From sequence record OR896831.1: DNA of 51,209 nucleotides; one strand, given 5' to 3'. Every line of letters begins with the position of its first letter. The stretch's first letter is position 1. This DNA comes from Escherichia phage BubbaBully. The notes beneath the pieces were generated by a model. It was not told the origin of the DNA. It did no database searches and saw only the letters and a program-made list of their open reading frames with translations. Shown one piece after another: positions 9,468 through 50,650 of the stretch. The position numbers and the translations under genes are program-made.

Positions 9468-9502
9468 GGGGCGTTGCGCCCCTTTTTTTATTCCTGTAAA
9501 AT
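9468..9502 (+). promoter_or_regulatory. terminator-promoter fusion unit (hairpin + T7 + TTGCGC-17-TAAAAT)
   Basis: GGGGCG-ttg-CGCCCC stem, T-run 9483-9489; -35 TTGCGC formed by loop and 3' arm (9474-9479), -10 TAAAAT 9497-9502. Confidence 0.5.
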
Positions 9503-9528
9503 CACTCTACCAAATTCAAACAATCCAC

Positions 9529-9547
9529 TTTTAACAAAAAGTGCTAT
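9529..9547 (-). promoter_or_regulatory. conserved box, reversed orientation, in tail-operon leader
   Basis: TTTTAACAAAAAGTGCTAT immediately upstream of the RBS of gene G. Confidence 0.5.
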
Positions 9548-9562
9548 TTAGGAGAAAGAGCA

Positions 9563-9880
9563 ATGGCAAAGATGAAACTTACGCTTGCACCACTTCCAGA
9601 CTTCAAACTTCCAGTATCTTTTGTTATGCCTAACGGCGACGAGGGTCAAATCACCTTCACCGTGCGCCACCTGAAAGCGAAAGAAGTTCAGGAGCTTTAC
9701 GAAAGCGAAAACATCGTCACCGATTCAGATTTCATCATGAAGCTTGCGACGGGCTGGAACCTTGAGGAAGAATTCAACGAGGAAAACGCAAAGACTCTTG
9801 TCGAGTTCTACCCAGGCGCTGCGCTTGCCCTGACTGGTGCATATCTTTCCGCGCTGGCTGGTCAACGAGTAAAAAACTAA
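9563..9880 (+). CDS. tail assembly chaperone (G-like)
   Basis: 105 aa between major tail and tape measure genes; ends at slippery heptamer. Confidence 0.7.
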   Translation: MAKMKLTLAPLPDFKLPVSFVMPNGDEGQITFTVRHLKAKEVQELYESENIVTDSDFIMKLATGWNLEEEFNEENAKTLVEFYPGAALALTGAYLSALAGQRVKN

Positions 9881-10194
9881 AACGCGCCGTCTACCTGTTT
9901 TATCAAAAGCCGCCTACTGATGCAGAATTAGAGGCGGTTGGCCTCACAAGGGCAGACTATGAAGGCGAGGAACCGCCAGAAGTTATATTTGATGAATCAA
10001 TGATGCAGTCATGGGATGTATTCTGCGCAATGCAGACTCAATGGCGATCTGCTGGTGGCGGCGCTTATGGCCTTGATTACAACGTCCTCCCGATGCTCTT
10101 TGAAATATACAAGATCACAGATCGGGAAATGGCATTGAATGACCTGCGGATCATGGAAAGTAAAGCGCTCGAAATGATGCACGCAGGAAAATAA
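9563..10194 (+). CDS. tail assembly chaperone G-T fusion (via -1 frameshift at 9871-9877)
   Basis: -1 frame after the heptamer translates without stops into track ORF 10000-10194; conserved G/GT arrangement upstream of tape measure. Confidence 0.65.
9871..9877 (+). other. -1 programmed ribosomal frameshift slippery heptamer A_AAA_AAC
   Basis: Heptamer in frame at last two sense codons of G; -1 frame stays open to 10194. Confidence 0.7.
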
Positions 10195-10196
10195 AC

Positions 10197-10221
10197 GAGC
10201 GCCTTTTGGCGCTCTTTTCTT
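10197..10221 (+). terminator. terminator-like hairpin before tape measure gene
   Basis: GAGCGCC-tttt-GGCGCTC followed by a T-rich run. Confidence 0.45.
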
Positions 10222-10237
10222 ATCTGGAGGTAACTTA

Positions 10238-12949
10238 ATGGCGGAACAATACGCGGGTTTAACGTTAGGCGTTGACGTTCAGCAGGTAAACAACGCAGTT
10301 AAATCACTGAGGGATTTTAAGACCGCTTCCGAGGGCGCGGCTGATGGTCTTGAGTCTTTCGTCAATGAGGAGCAGATTGCACGACAGAGAGCCAAAGATC
10401 TGGCCTCAGAGCTTGCGAAGCAGAGAAAGGAGTTTCAGAGCGTACAGGCGGCGATAGATCCGACTGCTGCAAAAATGGAGCGCTTAAAGGCTGCGGCGGC
10501 TGGCCTAGATAAGCTTTGGAAAAAAGGTATAGTTCCTGACGAAACATTTTTCCAACTCGGAGAAATGCTTGAGACTCAAGCGAATAAACTCGCAGCCAAC
10601 AGAAAAGCGTTAACGGCTGAGGGCAGGGCAGCAATCGAGGAGTCAAAGCAGAAAGCGAAAGCGGCGGCTGAGGCTCAGAAATTCATTGCGGCACTGGAGG
10701 CGCAAGCGGCTGCGGCGGGTAAAACTCAATCCGAACTGATGGAAATGAAAGCTGCGCAGCTTGGAGTTTCGGCACAGGCGGCTCCATTCATTGAGAGAAT
10801 GCGCCAGCAGGAGCAAGCAACGGAAAAGCTTGGGATCTCAATGGGTCAGTATCGGCAGGCTATGCGAATGCTTCCGGCTCAAATCACGGACGTTGCAACA
10901 TCACTAGCTAGCGGTATGCCGATCTGGTTGGTTGCAATACAGCAGGGCGGTCAGATTAAGGACTCTTTCGGCGGGATTATCCCAACGTTTAAGGCGCTTT
11001 TGAGCTTGATTAGCCCTCTGAAAGTTGGCTTTGGTGCGGTTGTCGGTGTGCTTGGTTACATGGCTTACAGCGCATATAGCGCACGAAAAGAACTGAAAGA
11101 GATCTCAAAAACCATTCAGGATGCGACGGGCTTCACTTCTGACTTCTCAAACAAGCTTGCTGTTTCGGTTCAGGAACTGGCTAGCGTTTCGGGCAAATCA
11201 TCCGAGGAGCTTGTTAAATCGTTCGCCACAACGAAGGACACAGCCGGATCACTGATCAAGAAGCTTGTTGATCTCGGAGTGTCATACTCTGATGCGGCAG
11301 ATATGGCTCGACAGTACCAGCGCGACGGCGATATCTCAAAGCTTAACGGAAAGATTGCTGAGCATATGCAGAAGGTTGCAGAGCTTGAAAAAACATGGTG
11401 GGATGTAGCAAAGGCTCGATTAAAAGCGATGGGTGGCGTGCTTACTGGCGATGTTGAGGGAACGGAATACGCCGGAAAGAAAGACACACGACGAAAGAGC
11501 AACCTGGAAAACGCGCTCGAAATCATGACCGAGTACGGCAAGAAGAACAAGGAGATCGCAGACCTAAACTCTAAAGCTTTGGCTGAGGCGACTGCTGAGA
11601 TTGAAAAGCAATATTTCAACACTAACAGGGTTGCAAACGCTCAACAAGAACTTAACCAACTGATTGCAAATCAGAAGAAGCTTGAAAAGTCGAATAACGA
11701 GGAGGCGAAGCAACAAGCCGCTTATCTTATCAAGGCGAAGAAACAGGAGATTGAAGATCTCAAAAAACTTGAGGAGAAGAAGGGCAAAACAACCTCAAAA
11801 GGCGGTGGCGGCGGTGGCGTAGTCGAACAGCTTGATAAAGAGCTTTACGTGCTGCAAGCGCAGTTAAAAACCCTGAAAGAACATCGCACCGTTAACGATG
11901 TTATCTCAAGCCAGCGCCGTTCTTTGTGGAGCATTGAGAAGCAAATCGAGATCCTGGAGGAAGCGCAAAGCAAGCGACAGCTAACGGCTGGAGAGAAAAA
12001 ACTTCTTGCCGAGCAAAAGAGAGCGATTGAGCTTGCGCGGCAAAAAGCGGAGATTGGCGATCAGATTGTTCTACAGGAGCGGAGCAACAAGCTTTACCAA
12101 AACTCCCTTGAGTTCATCCGAAACACTCAGTCCGAGATTGACATTCTCAACCTGAAACAGCAGGGAATGACAGATGATCAGATTCGCAGAGAGCAGGAGC
12201 TACAGAAAATCAAGAATGATTATCTTGCGAAGGGTGGAAGCGTTGACGATCAGGTTTATCAGGACATGATCAAGAAAAGGACGGAGTATTACCAGACGGA
12301 GGACGCGCTGAGGGATAACTGGCTGGCTGGTGCAAAAAATGCTTGGGCTGAGTATGCACGAGACGCAACGGACATGTACGGCAACGTGCAGGAGATTGCA
12401 AGTAGCGCCCTGAGTGGTTTAACTGATCAAATGACTGAATTCTTAACGACAGGAAAGGCAAACTTTGCAGACTTTGCAAACAGCATTCTCAAGATGATTG
12501 TCCAGATGATCAGTAAGATGGTTATCTTTAACGCGCTGTCTGGATTGACCGGAGGCTCAACGTGGACTATGGGATCTCTAATGAGCGGTTTCTCGTCTGG
12601 TGGGTACACTGGCGACGGCGGCAAATATGATCCGGCTGGCATCGTTCACAAGGGTGAATTTGTTTTCACCAAAGAGGCAACGCAACGAATCGGTGCGCGG
12701 AATCTTTACAGACTCATGCGTGGATATGCAAACGGCGGCAGTGTTGGCGGTTCGTCATACTCTCGCGGCGCGTCGGCTGGCGGTGTTGGATCTCAATTCA
12801 ATTTCGGTGATATCATGGTTGACGTGAACAACGGCAACGATCCAAAAGGGATGGAAACCGGAATCAAGATGATTTTCACAGAAATGATTCAGCGGTCTTG
12901 CTCGCAAGGAGGAGAGGTTTATAACTTTGTTAATAGTAAGAGGGGGTAA
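10238..12949 (+). CDS. tail tape measure protein
   Basis: 903 aa, long coiled-coil-rich protein with Gly run, between chaperone and minor tail genes. Confidence 0.85.
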   Translation: MAEQYAGLTLGVDVQQVNNAVKSLRDFKTASEGAADGLESFVNEEQIARQRAKDLASELAKQRKEFQSVQAAIDPTAAKMERLKAAAAGLDKLWKKGIVPDETFFQLGEMLETQANKLAANRKALTAEGRAAIEESKQKAKAAAEAQKFIAALEAQAAAAGKTQSELMEMKAAQLGVSAQAAPFIERMRQQEQATEKLGISMGQYRQAMRMLPAQITDVATSLASGMPIWLVAIQQGGQIKDSFGGIIPTFKALLSLISPLKVGFGAVVGVLGYMAYSAYSARKELKEISKTIQDATGFTSDFSNKLAVSVQELASVSGKSSEELVKSFATTKDTAGSLIKKLVDLGVSYSDAADMARQYQRDGDISKLNGKIAEHMQKVAELEKTWWDVAKARLKAMGGVLTGDVEGTEYAGKKDTRRKSNLENALEIMTEYGKKNKEIADLNSKALAEATAEIEKQYFNTNRVANAQQELNQLIANQKKLEKSNNEEAKQQAAYLIKAKKQEIEDLKKLEEKKGKTTSKGGGGGGVVEQLDKELYVLQAQLKTLKEHRTVNDVISSQRRSLWSIEKQIEILEEAQSKRQLTAGEKKLLAEQKRAIELARQKAEIGDQIVLQERSNKLYQNSLEFIRNTQSEIDILNLKQQGMTDDQIRREQELQKIKNDYLAKGGSVDDQVYQDMIKKRTEYYQTEDALRDNWLAGAKNAWAEYARDATDMYGNVQEIASSALSGLTDQMTEFLTTGKANFADFANSILKMIVQMISKMVIFNALSGLTGGSTWTMGSLMSGFSSGGYTGDGGKYDPAGIVHKGEFVFTKEATQRIGARNLYRLMRGYANGGSVGGSSYSRGASAGGVGSQFNFGDIMVDVNNGNDPKGMETGIKMIFTEMIQRSCSQGGEVYNFVNSKRG

Positions 12950-12951
12950 TA

Positions 12952-13305
12952 ATGGCGGCGCTTGATGAATTTACATGGTGTACGCAAATTCAGAGCAGCG
13001 GCGGCGCAATGACCACGACGAATAACGACAGGGAGGTTGTTTTCGGCAATGGTTACACGCAAGTTGCATCGTCTGGATTTAACACGGTACGGCGTGAGTT
13101 TTCCATTGCCTACGTTGGACTTGATTACAAAGACGTGCTCAAGTTCATGAACGATCACAGGCTAAAGCCGTTTTTGTGGATTACGCCGGACGGCTCGCCA
13201 GGGTTGTTTAGAGTGAAAAGCGGAAGCGTTGCAGCAACGCCGATTTCGCCAGCCGTTCAGGAAGTGAAAGCAACTTTCACGGAGCAGTTTACGAGCATGA
13301 AGTAA
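12952..13305 (+). CDS. minor tail protein (lambda M-like)
   Basis: 117 aa immediately after tape measure; lambda-like order M-L-K-I-J. Confidence 0.6.
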   Translation: MAALDEFTWCTQIQSSGGAMTTTNNDREVVFGNGYTQVASSGFNTVRREFSIAYVGLDYKDVLKFMNDHRLKPFLWITPDGSPGLFRVKSGSVAATPISPAVQEVKATFTEQFTSMK

Positions 13306-13308
13306 GAC

Positions 13309-13346
13309 AAGCCGCCTTTGCGCGGCTTTTTTATTGGTGCTATAAT
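13309..13346 (+). promoter_or_regulatory. terminator-promoter fusion unit (hairpin + T6 + TTGCGC-17-TATAAT)
   Basis: AAGCCGC/GCGGCTT stem; -35 TTGCGC 13318-13323 in loop and 3' arm; -10 TATAAT 13341-13346. Confidence 0.5.
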
Positions 13347-13373
13347 TCGCACACCAAAAGAGGAGAAATTCAA

Positions 13374-14129
13374 ATGGCTACAGACTTAAACAAAGACTTT
13401 GCCAACTGCTTACAAAGCCTTTACCCTGGAGAAATCATCACGCTTGTTGAGGTTGACGGCACAAAGTTTGGCGCTAACGTTTATCGGTTCCACGCTGAGA
13501 ATTTGCAGTACACAGCAGAGGAATTAATGATCGCGAGAGAAACCGGAGTGCTACCGCCAAAAGACATTGTTTTTCAGGGTGAGGTTTACGGTGCGCGGCC
13601 TTTCGGTATTAGCGGGATCAGTTTCACCAGTAACGGAAAGGCTGATAAGCCGCAATTAACGCTTTCGAATCTTGATAGCCAAGTTAGCGCAATGATTCGC
13701 GCCTACAACGGCATGATGCAAGCGAAGGTTACGATCTGGATTACGGCGGCTGACTTCCTGCAAGCAGACGGAAGCGTTGCAGATGGCGCTTACAGGAAAC
13801 TTGTTTATTACATTGAGCGCCCAAATTTTTGCAATCAATCTGTTGCACGATTCGATCTCACATCGCCTTATGATATGGATGGGATCATGATACCGCCACG
13901 CATTAGCCAAAGCGTTTGTTATTGGGCGCAACGCGGCTGGTACAGGAGCGGTAAGGGTTGCGGGTATAATGGCGCGGCTATGTTCGACAAAGACAATAAC
14001 CCCGTAACAGATCCGGCGCAGGACTATTGCGCAGGAACAGCAACAGCTTGCAAAATTCGTTTCGGGTTTGATCAGCCATTAGATTTTGGCGGTTGCGCCG
14101 TCGCTTCACTATTGAGGAAAAACCAATGA
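13374..14129 (+). CDS. minor tail protein (lambda L-like)
   Basis: 251 aa; synteny with lambda-like tail tip module. Confidence 0.65.
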   Translation: MATDLNKDFANCLQSLYPGEIITLVEVDGTKFGANVYRFHAENLQYTAEELMIARETGVLPPKDIVFQGEVYGARPFGISGISFTSNGKADKPQLTLSNLDSQVSAMIRAYNGMMQAKVTIWITAADFLQADGSVADGAYRKLVYYIERPNFCNQSVARFDLTSPYDMDGIMIPPRISQSVCYWAQRGWYRSGKGCGYNGAAMFDKDNNPVTDPAQDYCAGTATACKIRFGFDQPLDFGGCAVASLLRKNQ

Positions 14130-14851
14130 TTAACGCAAAAATCAAACTTGAAATCATGCAGCACGCGCAAGACGTTTACCCCAATGAATGTTGCGGGGTG
14201 GTAACGCAAAAAAGCAGAGTGCAAAAATATCATCGGATCGATAACGTTCACGCAGACCCTAAAAATCATTTCGAAATGGATGCGTCAGAATACGCACAGG
14301 CGCTTGATAGCGGCGAACTAATTGCGGTGGTGCATTCGCACACTGGCGACGGCGCAACAACGCTACCGAGCGCGCACGACACTTGTATGTGTGATGAAAT
14401 GGGCGTGACGTGGGTTATAGTTTCATTGCCAGAGGGTGACATGAGAATGATAGAGCCGGAATCAAGACCGCTGACTGGTCGACCTTGGGCTTTAGGCTCT
14501 TATGATTGCTGGGGGCTGGTGATGGCATGGCACAAAGAGCAGGGCGTGATCTTGAATGATTTCCGCAAGCCATATGAATGGTGGAAGCCGGAACATGGTG
14601 AAAACCTTTATCAAGATAATTACTTGAAAGAGGGATTCGAACCAACAGGACAACCGCCACAGCCTGGAGACATGATCATCATGCAATTGCAATCGCAGGT
14701 GTGGAATCACGCAGGGATTTACCTTGGGAGCAATCAGCTATTGCATCACGCTTACGGTAAGTTGTCCCGCGTTGATTTATATTCCGGCTGGTATCAAGAG
14801 CACACGAAAATGATTTGCAGACATAAGGATCTGATTTATGGAAACAGTTAA
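14126..14851 (+). CDS. tail assembly protein (lambda K-like; JAB/MPN + NlpC/P60)
   Basis: JAMM motif HSHTGDGATTLPSAHD and NlpC/P60-like Cys (DCWG); ATGA overlap with upstream gene. Confidence 0.8.
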   Translation: MINAKIKLEIMQHAQDVYPNECCGVVTQKSRVQKYHRIDNVHADPKNHFEMDASEYAQALDSGELIAVVHSHTGDGATTLPSAHDTCMCDEMGVTWVIVSLPEGDMRMIEPESRPLTGRPWALGSYDCWGLVMAWHKEQGVILNDFRKPYEWWKPEHGENLYQDNYLKEGFEPTGQPPQPGDMIIMQLQSQVWNHAGIYLGSNQLLHHAYGKLSRVDLYSGWYQEHTKMICRHKDLIYGNS

Positions 14852-15437
14852 AACAATCAAACTTTCCGGCTCCCTGGGGCGGCGCTTTGGTGTCTTTCAT
14901 CGTTTCGCCGTCGATAGCTTTCCAGAGGCAATTCGAGCGCTATCAAGCCAGGTTGAAGGATTCAAAGACTACATGCAAAGCGAAATCGGATCGCGCATGA
15001 AATACGCAATCTTTGTTGACGGCGTTAACGTTGGAGAGCATAACGATAAAGCATGGCAATGCAGCAAAGAGATCAGGATTTTGCCTATTCCAACAGGTTC
15101 AAAATCTGGCGGTTTGTTTCAGGTAGTTTTGGGCGCTGTTATTATGGCGACTGCGTTTTTCACTGGTGGTGCATCGCTGGCGGCTATGGGTGCGCTAGCA
15201 TCCTCCGCTTTCATGATGGGCGGCGCAATGGTGCTGGGTGGAGTAATGCAGATGATTTCACCGCAGCAAGGCGGCTCTATGATGGAAATGCAGAGCGCAG
15301 AAAACAAACCTTCTTATGCGTTCGGCGGAGCGGTAAACACAACGGCGGCTGGATATCCTATCCCGTTACCGTATGGAGAGAGAACCGTTGGCGGCGCTAT
15401 CTGGTCGGCAGGTAGTTACGCAGAGGACAAAGTTTAA
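14838..15437 (+). CDS. tail assembly protein (lambda I-like)
   Basis: 199 aa with hydrophobic Gly/Ala/Met-rich C-terminal region; synteny. Confidence 0.6.
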   Translation: METVKTIKLSGSLGRRFGVFHRFAVDSFPEAIRALSSQVEGFKDYMQSEIGSRMKYAIFVDGVNVGEHNDKAWQCSKEIRILPIPTGSKSGGLFQVVLGAVIMATAFFTGGASLAAMGALASSAFMMGGAMVLGGVMQMISPQQGGSMMEMQSAENKPSYAFGGAVNTTAAGYPIPLPYGERTVGGAIWSAGSYAEDKV

Positions 15438-15443
15438 AGCACA

Positions 15444-15479
15444 CCCCGCCTTGCGCGGGGTTTTTTGCGCCAGTATAAT
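15444..15479 (+). promoter_or_regulatory. terminator-promoter fusion unit (hairpin + T6 + TTGCGC-17-TATAAT)
   Basis: CCCCGC-cttgc-GCGGGG stem; -35 TTGCGC 15451-15456; -10 TATAAT 15474-15479. Confidence 0.5.
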
Positions 15480-15515
15480 GTGCAAACCGATAAACAGCAC
15501 AAAAGGTTAAAAGAT

Positions 15516-18500
15516 ATGGCTAAAAATGTGATAAGCGGCAGTAAAGGCGGTTCATCAAAACCGTATGTGCCAAAGGAAATGGAAGATAACCTGATTTCGA
15601 TAAACAAAATCAAGATCTTACTTGCTGTTTCCGATGGTGAGTGCGACGAAACGTTTTCATTACGTGACCTGTATCTTGATGACGTTCCGGTTATGAATGA
15701 CGATGGCACTTATAACTATAGCGGCGTTTCGGCTGAGTTCAGGCCAGGGACTCAAGATCAAGATTACATCCAGGGATTCACTGACACCTCAAGCGAAATA
15801 ACAGTGTCGCGAAATCTTGAAACAGACACGCCATATGTGATTGCAGTAACCAACAAAAACCTATCTGCGATCAGAATAAAAATTCTTATGCCTACTGGTG
15901 TAAAGCAAGAGGACAACGGCGATCTCGTTGGTGTAAGCGTAACATATGCCGTTGATATGGCTGTTGATGGCGGCTCATACAATGAGATTTTGAGCGACAC
16001 GATAAGCGGTAAAACTCGCAGCGGTTACGACAGAAGCCGCCGAATTGATTTACCAGCTTTTAACGAGCAAGTATTGTTGCGCGTTCGCCGTGTTACTCCT
16101 GATAGCACATCGGCAAAGGTTACGGATCTGATTAAGTTGCAGAGCTACGCGGAAGTTGTAGACGCTAAATTTCGTTATCCGCTGACAGGTCTTGTTTATG
16201 TGGAATTTGATTCCGAGTTATTCCCGAACCAGATCCCACGAATAGCGGTAAAAAAGAAATGGAAGATCATAAACGTTCCGAGTAATTACGATCCTGTTTT
16301 GCGTGAATACCACGGCGCGTGGGATGGAACCTGGAAAAAAGCATGGTCTAACAATCCGGCTTACATCTTACACGATTTGATAACCAATCAGCGATACGGA
16401 CTAGATCAACGTGAGTTGGGAATTCCACTTGATAAGTGGAGCATTTACGAGGCTGGGCAATATTGCGATCAGATGGTTCCAGATGGAAAAGGCGGAACAG
16501 AGCCGCGTTACCTTTGCGACGTTGTGATCCAAAGCCAGATTGAAGCATACCAGCTTGTAAGGGATATTTGTTCAATCTTCCGTGGAATGAGTTTCTGGAA
16601 CGGTGAGAGCCTTTCAATTGTCGTTGATAGGCCGCGCGAGCCGTCTTACATCTTCACAAATGATAACGTTGTTAATGGTGATTTTAGCTACACATTCGCC
16701 AGCGAAAAGAGCATGTATACACAATGCAATGTGACTTTCGACGACGAACAAAACATGTATCAACAGGACGTTGAAGGGGTTTTTGAAACGGAGGCGGCGT
16801 TACGGTTTGGCTACAATCCAACGAGCATTACAGCGATTGGATGCACACGACGCAGCGAAGCAAACCGCCGCGGGCGATGGGTTCTGAAAACCAACTTGCG
16901 CAGCACAACGGTAAACTTTGCAACAGGTCTTGAGGGCATGATCCCGTCAATCGGTGATGTGGTGGCGATTGCGGATAACTTCTGGAACAGCGCATTAACG
17001 CTCAACCTTTCGGGGCGCGTTATGGAGGTATCCGGTCTGCAAGTTTTCCTACCGTTTAAAGTAGATGCGCGGCCAGGCGATTTCATCATGGTAAATAAGC
17101 CAGATGGGAAGCCAGTAAAACGCACCATTGCCAACGTGAGCGCAGACGGAAAAACCATTGAGCTAAACATAGGTTTTGGCTTTGACGTTCAGCCCGATAC
17201 GGTGTTTGCGATTGACCGCACAGATATTGCATTGCAGCAATACGTTGTAACGACAATCACAAGAGGAGACAACGATGACGAGTTTACTTACTCAATCACC
17301 GCTGTTGAATACGATCCGAACAAATACGACGAGATTGATTACGGCGTTAACATCGACGACAGGCCAACAAGCATTGTGCAACCGGACGTAATGCAACCTC
17401 CAGAGAATGTTGCCGTTTCCTCTTACTCTCGCATTGTTCAGGGTGTTAGCGTTGAAACGATGGTTGTTAGCTGGGATAAAGTGCCTTACGCGAGCTTATA
17501 CGAGGTTCAATGGAGGAAAGACAACAGCAACTGGTTAAACGTCCCACAGACGGCAAACAAAGAGATTGAGGTGGAGGGGATTTACGCTGGAGTTTATTAC
17601 GTTCGCGTGCGATCCGTTTCTGCTTCCGGCTCTACGTCGCCCTGGTCTGGAATAGTTACCGCATCGCTGACGGGTAAAGTTGGCGAGCCTGGGAAGCCTA
17701 TAAACCTTACTGCATCAACAAATGAGGTTTTCGGAATCCGCGTTAAATGGGGAATGCCAGATGGAACCGGAGACACGGCCTATATTGAGTTGCATCAATC
17801 ACCAGATGGAACGGCTGAAAACTCAAGCCTTTTAACGCTTGTCCCATATCCGCAGTTTGAATACTGGCACAGCACGTTACCAGCGGGGAAAGTTGTGTGG
17901 TATCGCGTGCGAAGTGTTGACAGGATCGGCAACGTTTCCGGTTGGTCTGATTTTGTGCGCGGCATGGCTTCCGATGATGTGACAGATATCATTGGCGACA
18001 TTTTAGATGACATCTGGAATACGGAGGGCGGAAAGGAAATCAAGGAAAACGCCATTGACAGCGCAAACAAGATTAAGGATCAGGCACAAAGCATCATTCA
18101 AAACGCACTGGCGAATGATACGGACGTTAGGATCATGAGGAAGGAAAACGGAAAGCGCAAAGCCGAATTTAGGCAATCAATCCAATTGATCGCAGATGAA
18201 ACGGAGGCTCGCGTTACCGCAATGACGCAACTCAAGGCTGAATTTGACGAGGAGATCACTAGCGAAGTAACGAGACTTGATCAGGCAATTGCAACAGAAT
18301 CAGAAACGCGAGCAACAGCTATTGAGGAATTGAAATCACAGATTGGTGATGATATCCAGGGGCAGTTAACGCGAGTTGAGGAGGCGATTGCAAACGAAAC
18401 AGAGGCGCGTGTTTCTGCTGATACGGCATTAACAGCAAAGTTTGGCGATGTTGAATCAGCGCTGACTGAAAAACTTGATTCATGGGCTGGCGTTAATGGA

Positions 18501-18941
18501 GTTGGCGCACAGTACGCAATGAAATTGGGATTGACCTACAACGGGCAGAAGTACAGCGCCGGAATGGTCATGCAGTTATCAAACAGCCCTCAAGGGTTGA
18601 TTTCACAAATCCTGTTTGATGCCGGAAGATTTGCGATCATGACGAGTTCGACGGGCGGAACGTATACATTGCCTTTTGTGGTGGAGAATAACCAAGTTTT
18701 CATTAACAGCCTGTTAGTGAAAGACGGTTCAATCACAAACGCCATGATCGGTAACTTCATCCAATCAAACAACTACGTTTGGAACCAATCAGGATGGAGG
18801 CTGGATAAAAACGGAACGTTTGAAAACTATGGCTCTACTCCTGGCGAGGGCGCTATGAAAATGACAAACGAAACGATCAGCGTTAGGGATGCAAACGGCG
18901 TTTTGCGTGTTCAGATTGGACGTATTACAGGTTATTGGTAA
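15516..18941 (+). CDS. host specificity protein J (central tail fibre / tip)
   Basis: About 1140 aa; N-terminus (SKGGSSKPYVP...) resembles lambda J; last gene of tail tip module. Confidence 0.85.
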   Translation: MAKNVISGSKGGSSKPYVPKEMEDNLISINKIKILLAVSDGECDETFSLRDLYLDDVPVMNDDGTYNYSGVSAEFRPGTQDQDYIQGFTDTSSEITVSRNLETDTPYVIAVTNKNLSAIRIKILMPTGVKQEDNGDLVGVSVTYAVDMAVDGGSYNEILSDTISGKTRSGYDRSRRIDLPAFNEQVLLRVRRVTPDSTSAKVTDLIKLQSYAEVVDAKFRYPLTGLVYVEFDSELFPNQIPRIAVKKKWKIINVPSNYDPVLREYHGAWDGTWKKAWSNNPAYILHDLITNQRYGLDQRELGIPLDKWSIYEAGQYCDQMVPDGKGGTEPRYLCDVVIQSQIEAYQLVRDICSIFRGMSFWNGESLSIVVDRPREPSYIFTNDNVVNGDFSYTFASEKSMYTQCNVTFDDEQNMYQQDVEGVFETEAALRFGYNPTSITAIGCTRRSEANRRGRWVLKTNLRSTTVNFATGLEGMIPSIGDVVAIADNFWNSALTLNLSGRVMEVSGLQVFLPFKVDARPGDFIMVNKPDGKPVKRTIANVSADGKTIELNIGFGFDVQPDTVFAIDRTDIALQQYVVTTITRGDNDDEFTYSITAVEYDPNKYDEIDYGVNIDDRPTSIVQPDVMQPPENVAVSSYSRIVQGVSVETMVVSWDKVPYASLYEVQWRKDNSNWLNVPQTANKEIEVEGIYAGVYYVRVRSVSASGSTSPWSGIVTASLTGKVGEPGKPINLTASTNEVFGIRVKWGMPDGTGDTAYIELHQSPDGTAENSSLLTLVPYPQFEYWHSTLPAGKVVWYRVRSVDRIGNVSGWSDFVRGMASDDVTDIIGDILDDIWNTEGGKEIKENAIDSANKIKDQAQSIIQNALANDTDVRIMRKENGKRKAEFRQSIQLIADETEARVTAMTQLKAEFDEEITSEVTRLDQAIATESETRATAIEELKSQIGDDIQGQLTRVEEAIANETEARVSADTALTAKFGDVESALTEKLDSWAGVNGVGAQYAMKLGLTYNGQKYSAGMVMQLSNSPQGLISQILFDAGRFAIMTSSTGGTYTLPFVVENNQVFINSLLVKDGSITNAMIGNFIQSNNYVWNQSGWRLDKNGTFENYGSTPGEGAMKMTNETISVRDANGVLRVQIGRITGYW

Positions 18942-22781: not shown

Positions 22782-23204
22782 ATGCACATTATTACCGGAG
22801 AAATTCGAAAAGAGCCGCGAATCAAGCAGACTCAAAACGGCACGCTTTACGTAGTTGAGTTGTCAGAGCGCTACAAAGACCGTGAAGGAAACGCTCAGTA
22901 CACAAATTACACGTTTTTCTTTAATGCTCGCGCCGGATCTGAGGGTATGAAAAACTGGTATGATGAGGCGTTCCAGGTCGGCAAGGTGATCTCTGTTTCT
23001 TGCGAAGTGCTAAAGGCAGAATTGCGAGAGTATGAGGGGAAGACGTATGTCACCATGCAAGCGGCAGACTTCCCGAAACTGCTGTTTAGCCAGCGCGGAA
23101 TCGCAGCGCCACAACAGCAAAGCCAACCACGGCAGCAAAGCCAAATCCAGCCACGGCAGAGCCAAGAGCCGCCAATCGACTTTGACGACGATATCCCATT
23201 CTAA
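22782..23204 (+). CDS. ssb: single-stranded DNA-binding protein
   Basis: 140 aa; Q/P-rich linker and acidic C-terminal tail DFDDDIPF typical of SSB. Confidence 0.75.
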   Translation: MHIITGEIRKEPRIKQTQNGTLYVVELSERYKDREGNAQYTNYTFFFNARAGSEGMKNWYDEAFQVGKVISVSCEVLKAELREYEGKTYVTMQAADFPKLLFSQRGIAAPQQQSQPRQQSQIQPRQSQEPPIDFDDDIPF

Positions 23205-24380: not shown

Positions 24381-25082
24381 TTATGCAACCGGAGGAGTTG
24401 CAGGAGTTGGGAGCTTGAAGTTGACAAGCTGGTAGATCTGCCCGATCTGGTTGGTCAATGCGGCAGTCTGCGCAAGCTGGCTGTTTTCAAACTCTTTAGC
24501 GCGAAGCTGATCCTTCAGGTCGCAGATCAGAGTTGCCTGCTGCTGTGCGAACTGGTCGCGGATCAGAGCGCGGGTTGCTTCCGCTTCCGTAGCAATAGTG
24601 CGATTAGTCTCGCAGCAACAAGCCTGATCACGAAGTTGTGCCTCGTAAGCCAAGCGTTGAGCCTCGTAGGACTGCGCACATATCGCATTGCCGATGGTGT
24701 TAACGCCGGAGGTGATCGCGGTGTTCACACCAGCGAAGCCCTGGACGCTAGCCAGGAGGTTTTGCGTGTTCTGGCTTGTCAAGCCGTTGAAGGTTGACGC
24801 AGCAGAGCGCTCAATGGTCAGGTTAGTGCCGTTCTGCCCCTGAATGGTTTGCAATCCGATGTTGTTTACGCTGGTTTGCAGGTTATTGATCCCATCAAGT
24901 ACGGCGTTAGCACCGACTGCAACAGCCGCGCCGTCACCGTAGCCATAACCAGGGCCGAATCCACGACCGCCGAAGCCGTTACCGAACCATGAACCTAACA
25001 GGCCACCTACAGCACCGCCAAGACCAGCCGCGCCAGCCTCGCCGCCCATACCGCTAGTTGGTAATAGAGTCATATCAGACAT
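24381..25082 (-). CDS. glycine-rich hypothetical protein
   Basis: 233 aa; Gly-rich N-terminal third, Gln-rich C-terminal part; downstream of tail fibre gene. Confidence 0.5.
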   Translation of the reverse strand: MSDMTLLPTSGMGGEAGAAGLGGAVGGLLGSWFGNGFGGRGFGPGYGYGDGAAVAVGANAVLDGINNLQTSVNNIGLQTIQGQNGTNLTIERSAASTFNGLTSQNTQNLLASVQGFAGVNTAITSGVNTIGNAICAQSYEAQRLAYEAQLRDQACCCETNRTIATEAEATRALIRDQFAQQQATLICDLKDQLRAKEFENSQLAQTAALTNQIGQIYQLVNFKLPTPATPPVA

Positions 25083-27392: not shown

Positions 27393-27458
27393 ATTTAAAT
27401 TCTCCTAAATATCACGTTTTGTTAATGACAAGCTGGATTATAGCATTGCGCAAGGCAT

Positions 27459-27481
27459 AAAAAAACCCCGCCGTAGCGGGG
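27459..27481 (-). terminator. intrinsic terminator after primase gene
   Basis: CCCCGC-cgta-GCGGGG preceded on + strand by A7 (U-run on - strand). Confidence 0.6.
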
Positions 27482-28510: not shown

Positions 28511-28951
28511 TTAGCTATTCGTGCTGTTTATGAAGTCCGACTCTTTCACGACGCGCAGCATTTCGTATCGGTCGCATTTCGTCGTTAGCGCTTTTCCGTT
28601 GGAGTCAAATCTCAGGTCAGGACGGCAGAATGAAGCTCGATATCCCTTGCAGCCGTTTCGCTTATAGTCGGCGTGAACCTTTTCGGCTCCAGAAACTGAA
28701 ATCATCCCGCGCTTGCGCCACTGCTGAATAACTTGGTGAGTAACCTTTAAACGCCTTGTCATTTCCGCCTGAGATCCGTAATATTCGCAAACGGCATCTA
28801 GACGAGCACGCAATCCGGCTTTGACTTCATCCTTTAGAACGTAGTAGCCTGTTTTGCGCTTGCGTTTTTTCTTGTCTTTACCGCGCTTTACCCCGTTGTT
28901 GCCATTGATTGTGCGCTTGTCAATTTCGCCAGTTGATGCAGCAATTTTCAT
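28511..28951 (-). CDS. putative HTH DNA-binding protein with basic N-terminus and Cys cluster
   Basis: Start at internal ATG 28951 (GGAGG RBS); track ORF N-terminus overlaps the box of the divergent promoter; HTH-like segment MTRRLKVTHQVIQQWRKRGMIS. Confidence 0.45.
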   Translation of the reverse strand: MKIAASTGEIDKRTINGNNGVKRGKDKKKRKRKTGYYVLKDEVKAGLRARLDAVCEYYGSQAEMTRRLKVTHQVIQQWRKRGMISVSGAEKVHADYKRNGCKGYRASFCRPDLRFDSNGKALTTKCDRYEMLRVVKESDFINSTNS

Positions 28952-28964
28952 ATTAAAACCTCCG

Positions 28965-29008
28965 ATAGCACTTTTTGCTAAAAACATTCAAAACGTAGGC
29001 GCTATTAT
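28965..29008 (+). promoter_or_regulatory. box promoter (box + 22-bp spacer + TATTAT) for helicase gene
   Basis: ATAGCACTTTTTGCTAAAA 28965-28983; -10 TATTAT 29003-29008; 32 nt upstream of the helicase start. Confidence 0.55.
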
Positions 29009-33464: not shown

Positions 33465-33496
33465 CATTTCCAACGAAAACCACTGAGGAAAACGAA

Positions 33497-39523: not shown

Positions 39524-39553
39524 TTATTATCCTCAATTCGTTTCGTTGAGATA

Positions 39554-39597
39554 ATAATAGCGGATCTTATCGACCCGCTTTTAACAAAAAGTGCTAT
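39554..39597 (-). promoter_or_regulatory. box promoter (box + hairpin + TATTAT)
   Basis: Box 39579-39597 (- strand), stem AGCGG/CCGCT, -10 at 39554-39559. Confidence 0.55.
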
Positions 39598-43304: not shown

Positions 43305-43334
43305 GCACCCAACGAAACAACACGGAGAAATGAA

Positions 43335-43529
43335 ATGGCTATCAGATTCAACGCTGACTACCCAGGCTTTAAATCTGGCAAGACCTATCAGGCAAAATAT
43401 GCAGCGCACCCATTCTACGGCTACCTTGCAATCAAGGTTGTAGACGATGACGGCGACACGCGATACCTGGCGCTTAATCTGCTTGAGGACGGCTCAATCG
43501 TGGAGGTTGATGAAGATGAAGATCACTAA
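43335..43529 (+). CDS. small acidic protein
   Basis: Start at ATG 43335 after GGAGA RBS; 64 aa ending VEVDEDEDH. Confidence 0.45.
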   Translation: MAIRFNADYPGFKSGKTYQAKYAAHPFYGYLAIKVVDDDGDTRYLALNLLEDGSIVEVDEDEDH

Positions 43530-46191: not shown

Positions 46192-46229
46192 GGCCTTATT
46201 GAAAGCAACCACGCAAACAGGAGATAAAA

Positions 46230-46385: not shown

Positions 46386-46573
46386 TGTTTACACTACGTG
46401 ACCACAGCGAATTGCAGGGCAAAACGGCGGAGTACCTCCGCCAACTTGCAGACGACATAGAGAGCGGTAAAGTGTGCGTTGACCGCATGACCATCGAATC
46501 ATCAATCGAATGGTTCAAGATCGAGAAGCGCGAAATCATCATTAACACAATGGAGGCAACTGACAATGAGTAA
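46385..46573 (+). CDS. hypothetical protein
   Basis: 62-aa ORF. Confidence 0.45.
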   Translation: MFTLRDHSELQGKTAEYLRQLADDIESGKVCVDRMTIESSIEWFKIEKREIIINTMEATDNE

Positions 46574-47135: not shown

Positions 47136-47235
47136 TATCAACGCCGCAAGATCCGAAAGAGCCTTTCAACGCGCACAAGGCGCTAATGGTTCTACTGACC
47201 ATCATGATAATCGGTTACACTGTAAGGGGTATTTT

Positions 47236-47433
47236 ATGGCTGGTAACACACTGAAAACTATCGGCGCAGTCCTGTTAATCGTTGGCGGCTCACTGCTTAC
47301 TGAGCCAGGTTTCTTTAACTCAGTAGGCACATTTGCGGTGTTGTGTGGCGGTCTTATCGGCGGCTACATGGACGGCAGGAGAGCTGGGCGGCGCGAGGCT
47401 TTCGGCGGTGAAGATAAAAATCCGATAAAATAG
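47236..47433 (+). CDS. small membrane protein
   Basis: Start at ATG 47236 (AAGGGG RBS) within track ORF 47116-47433; two hydrophobic segments. Confidence 0.4.
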   Translation: MAGNTLKTIGAVLLIVGGSLLTEPGFFNSVGTFAVLCGGLIGGYMDGRRAGRREAFGGEDKNPIK

Positions 47434-47473
47434 CACGAATTGCTAAAACTTCCGCGAGGGCATTTGGTATAGT
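47430..47473 (+). promoter_or_regulatory. box promoter (box + 22 bp + TG-n-TATAGT in hairpin loop)
   Basis: Box 47430-47448 overlapping TAG stop; TATAGT 47468-47473 within GAGGGCA/TGCCCTC hairpin. Confidence 0.55.
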
Positions 47474-47515
47474 GCCCTCATTGAAGCAAAGCAACCAATC
47501 AAAGGAGATAACGAA

Positions 47516-47794
47516 ATGGCTACTATCCGCAAACACCTTGTAAACGCATTCGAAAACGTAGGCAAGGAGTATGGCTGGGATGATGGACTGAAAACACCGT
47601 ACACGGCACGCCGCCAGGGATTCAACTCTTTGAGAGAATGGGCGCGTTGCATGGCTGCAAACTACATGCCTGAAAATCATATTCTCATGCCGGATTCGCT
47701 GCTAGAAATGATCGAAGATGCACAGCGAGCAGGTATTCCACTGACTCAACATGATTTCGACGCATACGCAGAGGAGGAAGTAAACGCATGGTGA
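47516..47794 (+). CDS. hypothetical protein
   Basis: 92-aa ORF with AAAGGAGA RBS. Confidence 0.5.
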   Translation: MATIRKHLVNAFENVGKEYGWDDGLKTPYTARRQGFNSLREWARCMAANYMPENHILMPDSLLEMIEDAQRAGIPLTQHDFDAYAEEEVNAW

Positions 47795-48000
47795 GCGACA
47801 AGCCGGAATCGGTCAAAATCCGCACTGATTATGACGGCTCGCCGTGGATTAAGGCCGGAAAGGTTTACGACGCAACGCTTGAGAAATCGGGCAAGTTTGC
47901 AGGGTGTTACAAAGCTGGTGGGGAATTGGGTTCCCCATTTTACACAAGGCTGAAAAATTCAGTTCACTTAAACGGTAAAGATTGGGAGATTGTAGAATGA
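47788..48000 (+). CDS. hypothetical protein
   Basis: 70-aa ORF. Confidence 0.45.
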   Translation: MVSDKPESVKIRTDYDGSPWIKAGKVYDATLEKSGKFAGCYKAGGELGSPFYTRLKNSVHLNGKDWEIVE

Positions 48001-48611
48001 AATATGTAAAACCAACGACAAGCGGTTTCGGTTACACGGCTGGCAAACTATATCAGATCCTGTTGACCTATGAGGGCGGTCAATTTGTTGTTAAGAACGA
48101 CAAAGGGGTTAATCAGATTATTCGCGGCGACGGCAAGCCGTCATTACGGTTAGAGCGTGGCGGAAAGTTTGAGATTGTGGATATTCCAGAACCTGGCGAG
48201 GCTCAAGAGTACGCAGTTGAAACAGCAAAAAAGACAAGCGAGGCTCTACGCGAGCACGTCAAAGGGATTGTGAAAGATTCTATTGTTAGCGCGGCGTTGC
48301 CTGGTGGCGTGCTTCATAAGGCAGTAAGCGAAAGCGATCACTTGCGAGCAGTGCGCCAAATCGCAGCAAACGCAACAGAGCTTGCAAGCGAGATTGCATC
48401 AGGTCGATATGATGCAAGTCTCTATATGAGACTTGAAAAGGCAGAACGCGAGGCGGAGCAGCACAAAGCGGATTGCATCAAAGCGGAAGCAATTGTTGAT
48501 CAGCTTTATGACATATTCCCGCAGGTGCGCAATCCAGAGCAATTGATTGCAGCAGTTCGCAGTTCGAAAATCTTTGCTGATGCGTTTTTGGAACTGCAAA
48601 AGGTTAAATAG
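47997..48611 (+). CDS. hypothetical protein
   Basis: Start at ATG 47997 overlapping upstream stop; 204 aa. Confidence 0.5.
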   Translation: MKYVKPTTSGFGYTAGKLYQILLTYEGGQFVVKNDKGVNQIIRGDGKPSLRLERGGKFEIVDIPEPGEAQEYAVETAKKTSEALREHVKGIVKDSIVSAALPGGVLHKAVSESDHLRAVRQIAANATELASEIASGRYDASLYMRLEKAEREAEQHKADCIKAEAIVDQLYDIFPQVRNPEQLIAAVRSSKIFADAFLELQKVK

Positions 48612-48651
48612 CACTTTTTGTTAAAGCTTCCGCGAGGACATTTGTTAAAGT
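48608..48651 (+). promoter_or_regulatory. box promoter (box + 22 bp + TAAAGT in hairpin loop)
   Basis: Box 48608-48626 overlapping TAG stop; TAAAGT 48646-48651 within GAGGACA/TGTCCTC hairpin. Confidence 0.5.
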
Positions 48652-48685
48652 GTCCTCATTGAAGCGAAACACGGAGATTTAGGAA

Positions 48686-48895
48686 ATGGCTGTATACACT
48701 GGCAAGATGTTTGAAAGCGAAAACCCGATTTACGGCGGCACTTATGAGCTAATCATTGATGAAGATCGCGTAATTCTGGCTGATGACTATAACCAAGAAT
48801 ATTACGAAGTAGAAGCCGATAAATGGGATGACGACGTTATGTTTCTTGTTGATAATAGCCGCATCAAGTTTTATGCAGTGGAGGAAGAAGAATGA
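48686..48895 (+). CDS. small highly acidic protein
   Basis: 69 aa, Asp/Glu-rich, ends VEEEE. Confidence 0.5.
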   Translation: MAVYTGKMFESENPIYGGTYELIIDEDRVILADDYNQEYYEVEADKWDDDVMFLVDNSRIKFYAVEEEE

Positions 48896-49143
48896 TCACA
48901 ATTAACCTATCAGAAGAACAAGCGAAATCATTGTTGCGCGGCCTGGGCTGGCGAATGGGTAGCGGTAGCGAGGCGGTTGTAAACATCAAAGAGGAAGTAG
49001 CAAGAGAGCTTTTTGCACAGCTTGAGCATAAACTGATGCCAGCCTCAACAAGCGCGGCGGAGCTTGCTGTGTGGCGGCATGAAAACGGCCTTAATGAAAT
49101 GGATGTTGAGAAGTGGAAGCGTAAAAACGAGGTGATGAAATGA
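48892..49143 (+). CDS. hypothetical protein
   Basis: 83-aa ORF, ATGA overlap. Confidence 0.45.
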   Translation: MITINLSEEQAKSLLRGLGWRMGSGSEAVVNIKEEVARELFAQLEHKLMPASTSAAELAVWRHENGLNEMDVEKWKRKNEVMK

Positions 49144-49478
49144 TTTATATTCATAGCTACGGTGTCGGCAAGTTTGGCAACAAACAGATCCGAAATATTC
49201 ACGACACGCTCGATGAAGCAATGGCACAGCAACGCGTTTTAGGTGGAGTGGTTAAGGCGTTTGAGTCAGTGGAAAACTTAGAAAGCGAATGGATGGAGCG
49301 CGAGCACATAAAGGATTTGATTGTTGATGAGGTGTCATGCCTGATTGACGATCTCACAACTGACGCGCCAGGCTCGCCGCGAAACTATGAGCATGGTTCG
49401 TCTCAGTGGGATAGCTGGAAGGTTAAAACGCTTAACAACCTCCGCAATATCCTTGATGGAAAATTTAACGAAATTTAA
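49140..49478 (+). CDS. hypothetical protein
   Basis: 112-aa ORF, ATGA overlap. Confidence 0.5.
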   Translation: MIYIHSYGVGKFGNKQIRNIHDTLDEAMAQQRVLGGVVKAFESVENLESEWMEREHIKDLIVDEVSCLIDDLTTDAPGSPRNYEHGSSQWDSWKVKTLNNLRNILDGKFNEI

Positions 49479-49516
49479 TAGTGTTTAAAGCGCCTCAGAG
49501 CGATTATAGGAGGCGC
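49478..49516 (+). promoter_or_regulatory. degenerate (internally deleted) box with hairpin carrying a TATAG element
   Basis: ATAG-TGTTTAAAG resembles the box with about 7 nt missing; stem GCGCCTC/GAGGCGC 49490-49516 with TTATAG in loop. Confidence 0.3.
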
Positions 49517-49537
49517 AAAAATCGGAGGTGCGATTGC

Positions 49538-49666
49538 ATGGATAACTACGAAAAACCGTCTCAGTGGTGCGCACGTAAGCAGGAGGAGGCACTTGAGCGC
49601 GGCGACCAGAAAGCAGCTTTAAACTATTTCCAGATGTTCCAACTTTGGCAGAGCAGAGGGCTATAA
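49538..49666 (+). CDS. small hypothetical protein (42 aa)
   Basis: Start at ATG 49538 after GGAGG RBS, inside alt-start track ORF 49481-49666. Confidence 0.3.
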   Translation: MDNYEKPSQWCARKQEEALERGDQKAALNYFQMFQLWQSRGL

Positions 49667-49667
49667 A

Positions 49668-49898
49668 ATGTTCGGATTGAATGAGGCAGAATTCAACATT
49701 GTAAAACGTGCGACAAAAGACTGCGTAAACGAGATCGCTGATCGCATTGAGCAGAAGGACGAGAAATATGATCACATCGCGGCTGGCATTATCTGCAAAC
49801 ACTATCAGCCAGTTAGCACTCTATTAACAAAAACGCAATTTATTTGGCTTGCCGGATACCTGAGAGGGCGCTGGGGAAAGAATTTTGACAGAGAATGA
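49668..49898 (+). CDS. hypothetical protein
   Basis: 76-aa ORF. Confidence 0.45.
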   Translation: MFGLNEAEFNIVKRATKDCVNEIADRIEQKDEKYDHIAAGIICKHYQPVSTLLTKTQFIWLAGYLRGRWGKNFDRE

Positions 49899-50040
49899 TT
49901 GACGTCATGCGCCTGATTGGTTAACCTAAACCTCGTAAACATAAGAGGCTCATTCGAGCAACGCGCCAGGCGATACTGGCAACCACAGCGCCGCGCTGGT
50001 TGTTCAACCGTAAGACGCGGCGTTTTTACAGGAGAAAGCA

Positions 50041-50208
50041 ATGAAACGATATCCAGAAGAAACAGCCAAAGTGACTATCATCGTGGAACGAAACGGCGTA
50101 AAGACTCGCTACAAAAAACGATTCAAGAAAGGCGAGGCAATGCTAGGCCGAATCTCTGATTTCATGATCAAGATTCAAGAGGATAAGCCAGATGAAATGG
50201 AAGGTTAA
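50041..50208 (+). CDS. small basic protein (55 aa), not in ORF track
   Basis: ATG after strong RBS CAGGAGAAAGCA (same 20-nt context as the ssb start); overlaps the next ORF start. Confidence 0.4.
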   Translation: MKRYPEETAKVTIIVERNGVKTRYKKRFKKGEAMLGRISDFMIKIQEDKPDEMEG

Positions 50209-50377
50209 GCTGACTATCAGGCGCATGGGGCGACAATGCCGCTCATGCAAGCAAGTTTTCGAATGCGAGGTTTCAGCGTCAAACGAGGTAGAGGCGGCGC
50301 AGTTTGCAAAAGAGCTTTCTGGTGCAGATCCAGAAACCCACAAGTTTTCAATTGATTATTTAAGGAGTTTATCATGA
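50192..50377 (+). CDS. hypothetical protein
   Basis: 61-aa ORF with GAGGA RBS. Confidence 0.4.
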   Translation: MKWKVKLTIRRMGRQCRSCKQVFECEVSASNEVEAAQFAKELSGADPETHKFSIDYLRSLS

Positions 50378-50607
50378 TCTTAGGCTTTGTTATTGGTTTC
50401 ATTGCCGCTATCGCAATGGTTATGGTTGTTGGCGGTGCAGCGCAGAAATACGCAATCAAAAATGGCTGGTACGCCTCCGCGATCTGGATTGAGAAAGAGA
50501 AGTGTTGGAAAGTGCGCGGTCGATTCCTCAGTGTGGCATCAAGGATTCATGCTGGCATCCTTGAAGAATACCGCTCAGGACGGAAAACCGTCAAATACGT
50601 AGATTAA
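50374..50607 (+). CDS. small membrane protein
   Basis: 77 aa with N-terminal hydrophobic helix. Confidence 0.45.
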   Translation: MILGFVIGFIAAIAMVMVVGGAAQKYAIKNGWYASAIWIEKEKCWKVRGRFLSVASRIHAGILEEYRSGRKTVKYVD

Positions 50608-50613
50608 CAGAAG

Positions 50614-50650
50614 CCCCGCGTTTGCGGGGTTTTTTTGTGCCTGTTATAAT
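50614..50650 (+). promoter_or_regulatory. terminator-promoter fusion unit (hairpin + T7 + TTGCGG-17-TG-n-TATAAT)
   Basis: CCCCGC-gttt-GCGGGG stem; -35 TTGCGG 50622-50627; extended -10 50642-50650; upstream of putative TerS. Confidence 0.5.

Follow-up and report, generated by a model that had tools for sequence, protein, structure and literature searches.

Terminator hairpins overlapping predicted sigma70 promoters in Escherichia phage BubbaBully, with loops that probably supply the -35 element

Introduction

The 51,209-bp sequence of Escherichia phage BubbaBully (OR896831.1), analysed whole and called the window here, is the complete genome of a T1-like siphophage (Drexlerviridae). At four places in it, named sites 1 to 4, a GC-rich hairpin followed by a run of Ts overlaps the predicted promoter for the next genes, whose -35 motif begins in the hairpin loop. 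We hold it probable, at roughly 0.7, that these are intrinsic terminators overlapping sigma70 promoters, that the TTG of the hairpin loop serves as the -35 element, and that the late region is thereby split into separate transcription units. Sequence comparison supports this interpretation well at sites 1 to 3 and more weakly at site 4. As RNA, each GC-rich hairpin with its U-tract would constitute an intrinsic terminator, ending the transcripts of the major tail protein (MTP) gene, of genes M and I, and of the rightward early block. As duplex DNA, the same ~35 bp would be a sigma70 promoter for the host RNA polymerase, in which the TTG of loop and 3' arm would act as the -35 and TAnAAT as the -10, with a 17-bp spacer built from what remains of the 3' arm, from the T-tract and from a further 7-8 bases.

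Structure of the four units

Site 1, on the + strand like the other three, is a terminator after the MTP gene (9468-9489). Its stem pairs GGGGCG (9468-9473) with CGCCCC (9477-9482) around the loop TTG (9474-9476), and seven Ts follow (9483-9489). The loop and the first three bases of the 3' arm read TTGCGC (9474-9479), separated by a 17-nt spacer from TAAAAT (9497-9502), a -10 that has no TGn, a TG being directly adjacent to it. In site 2, after gene M (13311-13332), the stem GCCGC (13311-13315)/GCGGC (13322-13326) encloses the loop CTTTGC and passes into six Ts (13327-13332); TTGCGC (13318-13323) lies 17 nt from the hexamer TATAAT (13341-13346) of an extended -10, TGcTATAAT (13338-13346), upstream of gene L. 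The terminator of site 3, after gene I (15444-15466), has the stem CCCCGC (15444-15449)/GCGGGG (15455-15460), the loop CTTGC and six Ts (15461-15466), with TTGCGC at 15451-15456 and, after 17 nt, TATAAT at 15474-15479, preceded by cag instead of TGn and located upstream of gene J. Site 4 closes the rightward early block (50614-50636): stem CCCCGC (50614-50619)/GCGGGG (50624-50629), loop GTTT and seven Ts (50630-50636). Its candidate -35, TTGCGG (50622-50627), whose role is uncertain, is 17 nt away from the hexamer (50645-50650) of the extended -10 TGtTATAAT (50642-50650), upstream of the small terminase gene TerS. Hence at all four sites the -35 falls within the hairpin and the T-tract within the spacer, TTGCGC or TTGCGG stands at exactly 17 bp from the -10, and the latter reads TAAAAT at one site and TATAAT at the other three; sites 2 and 4 have a TGn, sites 1 and 3 none.

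The four stems consist of 5-6 G/C pairs, to which A-T pairs add further length; their loops measure 3-6 nt, and each stem runs immediately into its six or seven Ts. Folding energies range from -12.5 to -17.6 kcal/mol, with z values of -3.0 to -4.6 against shuffled sequence (site 1, -13.4 kcal/mol, z = -3.5; site 2, -12.5 kcal/mol; site 3, -15.0 kcal/mol; site 4, -17.6 kcal/mol, z = -4.6). The units are located 4-10 nt past the stop codons of MTP, M, I and the last early genes. A terminator scan reported sites 1 to 3 on the + strand and site 4 only as a reverse-strand reading, its + strand hairpin being recovered by a separate hairpin scan, and no Rfam family was matched anywhere in the 51,209-bp window. 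A preliminary description of this DNA had proposed four hairpins with TTGCG(C/G) in loop and 3' arm, a 17-bp spacer and TATAAT or TAAAAT, and in this it proved right base for base. It also had the T-run forming most of the spacer, whereas the run accounts for 6-7 of the 17 bases, and it located site 1 before the tail operon, whereas the site lies inside the tail module, after the MTP gene and before the chaperone and tape-measure genes.

The arrangement does not occur at random. The pattern TTGCGN-N17-TAWAAT has four matches in the genome versus 0.07 expected, and none of 100 shuffles gave four. All three occurrences of TTGNNN-N16-18-TATAAT in the genome belong to these sites, which also hold three of the 11 TATAAT hexamers found on the whole + strand.

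Conservation and spacing of the loop TTG

Orthologous intergenic regions were extracted from relatives in IMG/VR (64 loci around gene L and 78 around TerS). With the three tail junctions pooled, TTG stands 17 bp from a TAnAAT-type hexamer in 104 of ~130 distinct sequences; taken separately, TTG is at 17 bp from the best -10 in 38 of 47 distinct sequences at the MTP-G junction (site 1), 30 of 44 at M-L (site 2) and 36 of 45 at I-J (site 3). The M-L clades that have no usable -10 (L054, L055, L056) have no TTG either. The -10 hexamer is kept across the family with a sigma70-like profile, invariant at T1, A2 and T6 and unconstrained at position 3 (TATAAT, TAAAAT, TAGAAT, TACAAT, TAATAT); at site 1 relatives carry TAAAAT, TAGAAT, TAATAT, TACAAT or TATAAT in the same place, while the flanking leader sequence diverges. 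Phage T1 shows the same layout at three junctions, as TTGCAC-17-TAAAAT, TTGCGC-17-TAGAAT and TTGCGC-17-TATAAT. Its record marks a rho-independent terminator at each of the four orthologous junctions (18770-18796, 22793-22816, 24972-24994 and 8322-8344 for sites 1 to 4, respectively), as well as at junctions without a promoter, and annotates no promoters. In phage TLS the loops of terminators T28, T42, T46 and T49 contain TTG(C/T)G.

Direct inspection of the extracted junctions showed that the stems differ between clades yet still pair, and that only the pairing, the T-tract and the TTG are kept. This bears on a barely tenable alternative, in which the GC-rich palindromes would be operator sites in the DNA, bound by a dimeric protein of phage or host, rather than terminators or -35 elements: although the palindrome CCCGCCTTGCGCGGG recurs at two T1 junctions and at a third in TLS, operators are rejected since the stems change through paired substitutions (GCCGC/GCGGC, CCCGC/GCGGG, GCCCC/GGGGC, GGGAGAGC/GCTCTCCC, GGGGAAGC/GCTTCCCC), and all the units are oriented with their genes and have the T-run on one side only.

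The decisive result for a -35 role of the loop TTG, as far as sequence comparison can tell, is the constraint on spacing. The components of the spacer vary among clades, the distance from TTG to the T-run being mostly 7-10, the T-run itself 4-9 and the stretch from its end to the -10 3-10. Nevertheless, of 98 sequences 85 have a total of 17 bp, and another seven a total of 16 bp. Between the two parts of the spacer the correlation is r = -0.84, and their sum has a variance of 0.45, compared with 0.99 and 1.48 for the parts themselves; the I-J junction by itself has seven distinct combinations of lengths, each totalling 17. TTG also moves with respect to the stem, making up a whole triloop in some clades, opening a tetraloop in others, and in others again contributing TT to the loop and G to the stem; the distance to the -10 stays at 17. 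Because component lengths vary and yet compensate to hold 17 bp, TTG would be a working -35. The anatomy of the sites, their non-random occurrence, their conservation and this constraint can be read directly from the sequences.

The terminators of the late region that have no promoter behind them provide a control. They are located at 5297-5321, where a Shine-Dalgarno sequence follows directly and which would act as an attenuator only, at 6844-6875 after the major capsid gene, at 7168-7196, and at 10197-10222 before the tape-measure gene, all on the + strand. A Shine-Dalgarno sequence stands within ~8-14 nt of each hairpin. None has a -10, an absence that the preliminary description had already pointed out for these hairpins (listed there at 5297, 6846, 7170 and 10197). 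The four terminator-promoter sites, unlike them, have an extra 20-60 nt before the Shine-Dalgarno sequence. The loops of the promoter-less terminators vary freely (TTCG, TACG, GAAA, TTTT, CATGT and others); at these four late junctions TTG is found in 31 of 119 distinct loops, versus 45/45, 37/42 and 38/42 loops of terminators with a -10 behind. Preservation of TTG for stability of the RNA loop, of the CUUG or UUCG type, was considered and rejected: the register of TTG shifts while its 17-bp distance is fixed, and the control terminators freely use UUCG, UACG and GAAA loops.

Site 4, the extended -10 and the weight of the evidence

The promoter before TerS behaves differently. An extended -10 (TGn with TATAAT, TAAAAT or TATACT) is present in all 41 analysable relatives, a set from which ~20 sequences are excluded because of a limitation of the hairpin finder. 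In most clades this -10 lies ~20 nt after the hairpin, which places the -35 position within the T-run, and in clades other than that of the window the loops are TTCG, TACG, TCCG or TAAT. It is only in the window's own clade that the -10 is eight bases closer and the loop TTG stands at 17-18 bp. The conserved determinant of site 4, judged from these comparisons, is the extended -10, which would carry most of the promoter function there and probably also at site 2; a -35 role of TTGCGG is doubtful, and in the window's clade the loop may add a -35 contact. Thus the proposal that the hairpin loop supplies the -35, made originally for all four sites, holds up at sites 1 to 3, with TTG at a conserved 17 bp and compensating lengths, and is in doubt at site 4.

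A fifth terminator-promoter unit was found on the minus strand, before the tail-fibre gene (27437-27481), with a hairpin at 27481-27466, seven Ts and the extended -10 TGcTATAAT (hexamer 27442-27437); its -35 position reads TTTTTT. Within the same unit (27406-27481), a reversed sequence resembling the marbox described below, TTAACAAAACGTGATATTTA, occupies 27425-27406, at ~+5 to +25, and abuts the Shine-Dalgarno sequence.

A number of observations weigh against the loop TTG as a -35 and have to be set beside the constraint on spacing. The hexamers match the consensus TTGACA at only three of six positions. The four sites are not listed by an automated promoter scan, which we count among the objections; the scan requires at least four matches of six in the -35 and misses them for that reason, and this explains the omission and makes it no counter-evidence. 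The promoter before TerS is found family-wide without TTG at -35, and at sites 2 and 4, which carry TGn, a -35 is possibly dispensable. TTG is not rare in terminator loops, being present in 26% of the controls and in 14 of 22 at one control junction. In the most divergent relatives (L057, L062, L063, L065) TATAAT or TATACT follows the I-J terminator without TTG. A few variants have a spacer of 13 or 19 instead of 17; in L005 (M-L and I-J) and L064 (I-J and MTP-G), where the spacer is 19 or 13, only the length of the T-run differs, and such cases may stem from homopolymer sequencing errors or represent natural promoter-down variants. The relatives, moreover, share descent, and the counts overstate the number of independent events. 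Finally, literature searches found no mapping of transcript 5' or 3' ends for Drexlerviridae.

Several of these points feed the explanation that competes most seriously, namely that the promoters are real and independent of a -35, working through an extended -10 or a -10 alone and placed behind the terminators for compactness. The loop TTG would then be a by-product of T-rich loops adjoining 3' arms that start with G. We regard this as unlikely. It would account for TGn at sites 2 and 4, for the 41 of 41 relatives with TGn before TerS and a -35 position mostly within the T-run, for the minus-strand unit at 27481 with its TTTTTT, for the outgroup I-J sequences that retain the -10 without TTG, and for the frequency of TTG in control loops. 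It fits poorly with sites 1 and 3, which have no TGn, with the excess of TTG in loops that have a -10 behind them over the 31 of 119 in controls, and with the compensation of lengths that fixes TTG at 17 bp, as a by-product would not be so held.

That the hairpins are terminators and nothing more, TAnAAT being part of an AT-rich leader without promoter activity and the downstream genes being served by read-through, appears very unlikely. Literature searches turned up no experimental start sites for these phages, a sample of 60 GenBank records contained no promoter annotation at the I-J junction, and the 2024 re-annotation of TLS accepted three sigma70 promoters, none of them at these junctions (PMC11447400). 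The search used for TLS allowed only two mismatches to the full consensus (PMC11447400), a limit under which a TTGCGC -35 fails. The four pattern matches versus 0.07 expected, the constrained spacing, the -10 hexamer that keeps a sigma70 position profile family-wide while the leader around it diverges, and the extra 20-60 nt that separate these sites from terminators followed directly by a Shine-Dalgarno sequence all argue for promoters.

Consequences for late transcription

If sites 1 to 4 are overlapping terminators and promoters with a loop-borne -35, the new start would lie ~7 nt past the -10, ~20 nt beyond the 3' end of the upstream RNA, with room left for a leader and a Shine-Dalgarno sequence. 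Starting past the point at which the upstream RNA ends, the downstream RNA would share no sequence with it, and each downstream unit would gain a 5' end and a leader of its own. The level of each late unit would depend chiefly on a weak-to-moderate promoter of its own rather than on read-through alone, and it is reasonable to infer that transcript levels are reset at the units, as initially suggested, while the head-gene terminators with no promoter behind would only attenuate. From the sequence we infer not just termination and initiation but also a coupling between the two. With the T-tract located within the promoter, a polymerase that terminates there must sit over both the -10 and the start site, and coupling is to be expected. 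It could take one of two forms: heavy upstream traffic would occlude the promoter, as proposed for tufB-secE, or polymerase released at the T-tract and still on the DNA would be recaptured by the promoter.

Units of this kind would explain how tail and terminase genes located behind strong terminators can be expressed, and would account for the late-gene promoters that are absent from the TLS re-annotation. They would represent a natural case of dual coding, in which an RNA hairpin and a DNA -35 are written on the same bases, with a measurable signature in the lengths that compensate to a 17-bp spacer. They would also offer synthetic biology an insulating stop-restart part of ~35 bp, and would provide a naturally occurring system in which to study promoter occlusion or polymerase recycling at terminators.

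Gene context, the capsid promoter and marbox repeats

In the layout of the genome the large terminase gene (1-1572) stands at one end and TerS (50677-51207, ATG at 50677) at the other. The nearest records are those of Escherichia phages vB_EcoS_W011D and Henu7 and of Enterobacter phage N5822, with 78-87% identity across the tail region. The genes flanking the four sites were confirmed by PHROGs profiles: MTP (8781-9461), a gene of the chaperone/tape-measure family (9563-9880), tape measure (10238-12949), minor tail protein M (12952-13305), gene L (13374-14129, ATG at 13374), tail assembly protein I (14838-15437) and gene J (15516-18941, ATG at 15516).

The window also contains a 20-bp repeat, TAAATAGCAC(TTT/GAA)TTG(T/C)TAA, which corresponds to the 21-nt 'direct repeat' of TLS, T1, Rtp and Rogue1, described without known function (TLS paper, PMC11447400). 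The repeat matches perfectly the marbox bound by the host factors MarA, SoxS and Rob, the forms compared being AYnGCACnnWnnRYYAAAY and gcannwwntgnnaaa. Perfect matches to the latter 15-mer number 18 in the window versus 1.27 expected, 12 on the + strand (1572, 28968, 31460, 31979, 33424, 33765, 43264, 43958, 45359, 46150, 47433 and 48611) and six on the - strand (41913, 40987, 39594, 38734, 9544 and 5829). A -10-like hexamer (CATAAT, TATTAT, TATAGT, TATAAT, TAAAGT and similar) stands exactly 20 nt after the 15-mer in 15 of the 18 copies, and in 14 of 20 in T1. In these repeat promoters the forward marbox is centred near -40, the position of class II sites, which are known to have a forward orientation and a centre between -36 and -55 (~-41 in micF). 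The 20 nt between marbox and -10 often form a GC-rich hairpin, and a C/A-rich motif (CAACGAAAC...GAGGA) common to the early-gene leaders lies after the -10 and ahead of the start codon, for example at 43306-43335, 33466-33496 and, on the - strand, 39530-39558.

No MarA-like gene was matched by tblastn with MarA and SoxS sequences in either the window or T1. The homologue of the T1 'transcriptional regulator' gp23 (28511-28987, - strand) was considered as a MarA-like protein and discarded, as it showed only a weak, sub-threshold similarity to Cro/YdaS-like helix-turn-helix domains (E = 3e-4); the repeat promoter at 28968 (+) overlaps its 5' end on the opposite strand. No paper linking marboxes to these phages was found.

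Two of the reversed repeats lie at late promoters. An antisense promoter candidate faces site 1 (9504-9550, - strand), with the repeat at 9550-9531, its marbox 15-mer at 9544-9530, and TAGAGT at 9509-9504, 22 nt after TTGTTA. A TAnnnT at exactly this distance is present in all 28 relatives that carry the repeat near site 1, and the spacer sequence varies among them. The antisense TAGAGT is one base from the sense TAAAAT of site 1, so that an open complex at either would preclude one at the other. Within 5808-5862 there is a promoter belonging to the major capsid gene alone, composed of TTGCAC (5808-5813), a 16-nt spacer and the extended -10 TGcTATCAT (hexamer 5830-5835), which is strongly conserved family-wide (TTGCAC-16-TGcTATCAT here, TTGACG-16-TGcTATTAT in T1). 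Its 16-nt spacer is a reversed marbox, and a bound factor would therefore sit inside that spacer. A hairpin and T-run, corresponding to TLS terminator T35, follow this promoter in the capsid leader. The capsid promoter, the minus-strand unit before the tail-fibre gene and the antisense promoter facing site 1 are missing from the preliminary description, whose picture is to that extent incomplete.

Two other copies depart from the class II geometry. The gene J leader contains at 15490-15513 a degenerate forward repeat, ATAAACAGCACAAAAGGTTAAAAG, with one mismatch to the marbox 15-mer, which is kept in nearly all relatives (DR8 in TLS); it is not a class II promoter because no -10 lies at the class II distance. 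At the end of the large terminase gene TerL (1572-1622), a perfect marbox starts at the last base of the stop codon (1572), with TACAAT 6 nt after it, not 20, and a terminator following at 1599-1622, an arrangement at odds with class II geometry.

These sequences suggest that host factors binding the marboxes activate early genes and hinder some late promoters. A two-tier programme run by host factors can be drawn from this as a speculative proposal, which as a whole we consider rather improbable. Some 15 early and middle promoters would be of class II, driven from marboxes by MarA, SoxS or Rob (RamA in Klebsiella), and the late genes would depend on sigma70 promoters hidden in terminators. 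Reversed marboxes would overlap or oppose late promoters (in the capsid spacer, at ~+5 to +25 of the tail-fibre unit, and in the antisense promoter facing site 1), and the activator would keep late-gene expression low until it is titrated by phage DNA made during replication; the overlaps would hand polymerase released at each T-tract to the next promoter.

Comparison with known systems

Overlap of a terminator and a promoter is already known as a kind, and the units described here are a refinement of known principles, not a new mechanism. For the ribosomal-protein operons of Salmonella, Brandis et al. (2019) reported interoperon terminator-promoter overlaps that are conserved; they demonstrated regulatory coupling genetically for tufB-secE only, and proposed promoter exclusion. 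The phage units resemble these overlaps in that an intrinsic terminator overlaps the sigma70 promoter of the next unit and in that the arrangement is conserved. The geometry differs. In the E. coli K-12 sequence, the -35 of tufB-secE (TTGACG) is 13 nt past the stop codon, and its -10/start region is part of the hairpin; at spc-alpha the -10 TAGATT is in the hairpin loop, and at S10-spc the -35 region abuts the T-tract. In the phage, unlike at those E. coli junctions, the -35 sits in the loop, the spacer includes the T-tract, and transcription would restart downstream of the point where the previous RNA ends; several such units also occur in one late gene cluster, unlike in the ribosomal-protein operons.

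Closer in descent are the late 'transcriptons' of T1, flanked by terminators and bearing RpoD promoters, attributed to Roberts, Martin & Kropinski 2004 in PMC11447400. They concern the same phage family and the same junctions, at which the T1 record has its orthologous terminators and no promoter features. The 2024 TLS paper could not confirm transcriptons in TLS, where its three sigma70 promoters lie elsewhere (PMC11447400), and the accessible text of the T1 and TLS literature makes no mention of an overlap with the -35 in the loop or of a constraint on spacing. These two features and the family-wide conservation appear new in the literature within reach, in which the 2004 T1 paper is represented by its citation.

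With extended -10 promoters (TGnTATAAT) the TGn is shared by sites 2 and 4, the minus-strand unit and the family-wide promoter before TerS; sites 1 and 3, unlike such promoters, have no TGn and retain TTG at the 17-bp distance. In other systems, RNA polymerase has been described as remaining on the DNA once intrinsic termination has taken place, and then initiating again (PMC6978380, PMC10372574 and PMC11364550, as far as their accessible parts go). By analogy only, a phage promoter that sits on top of the release site would offer such a polymerase the shortest distance for recapture.

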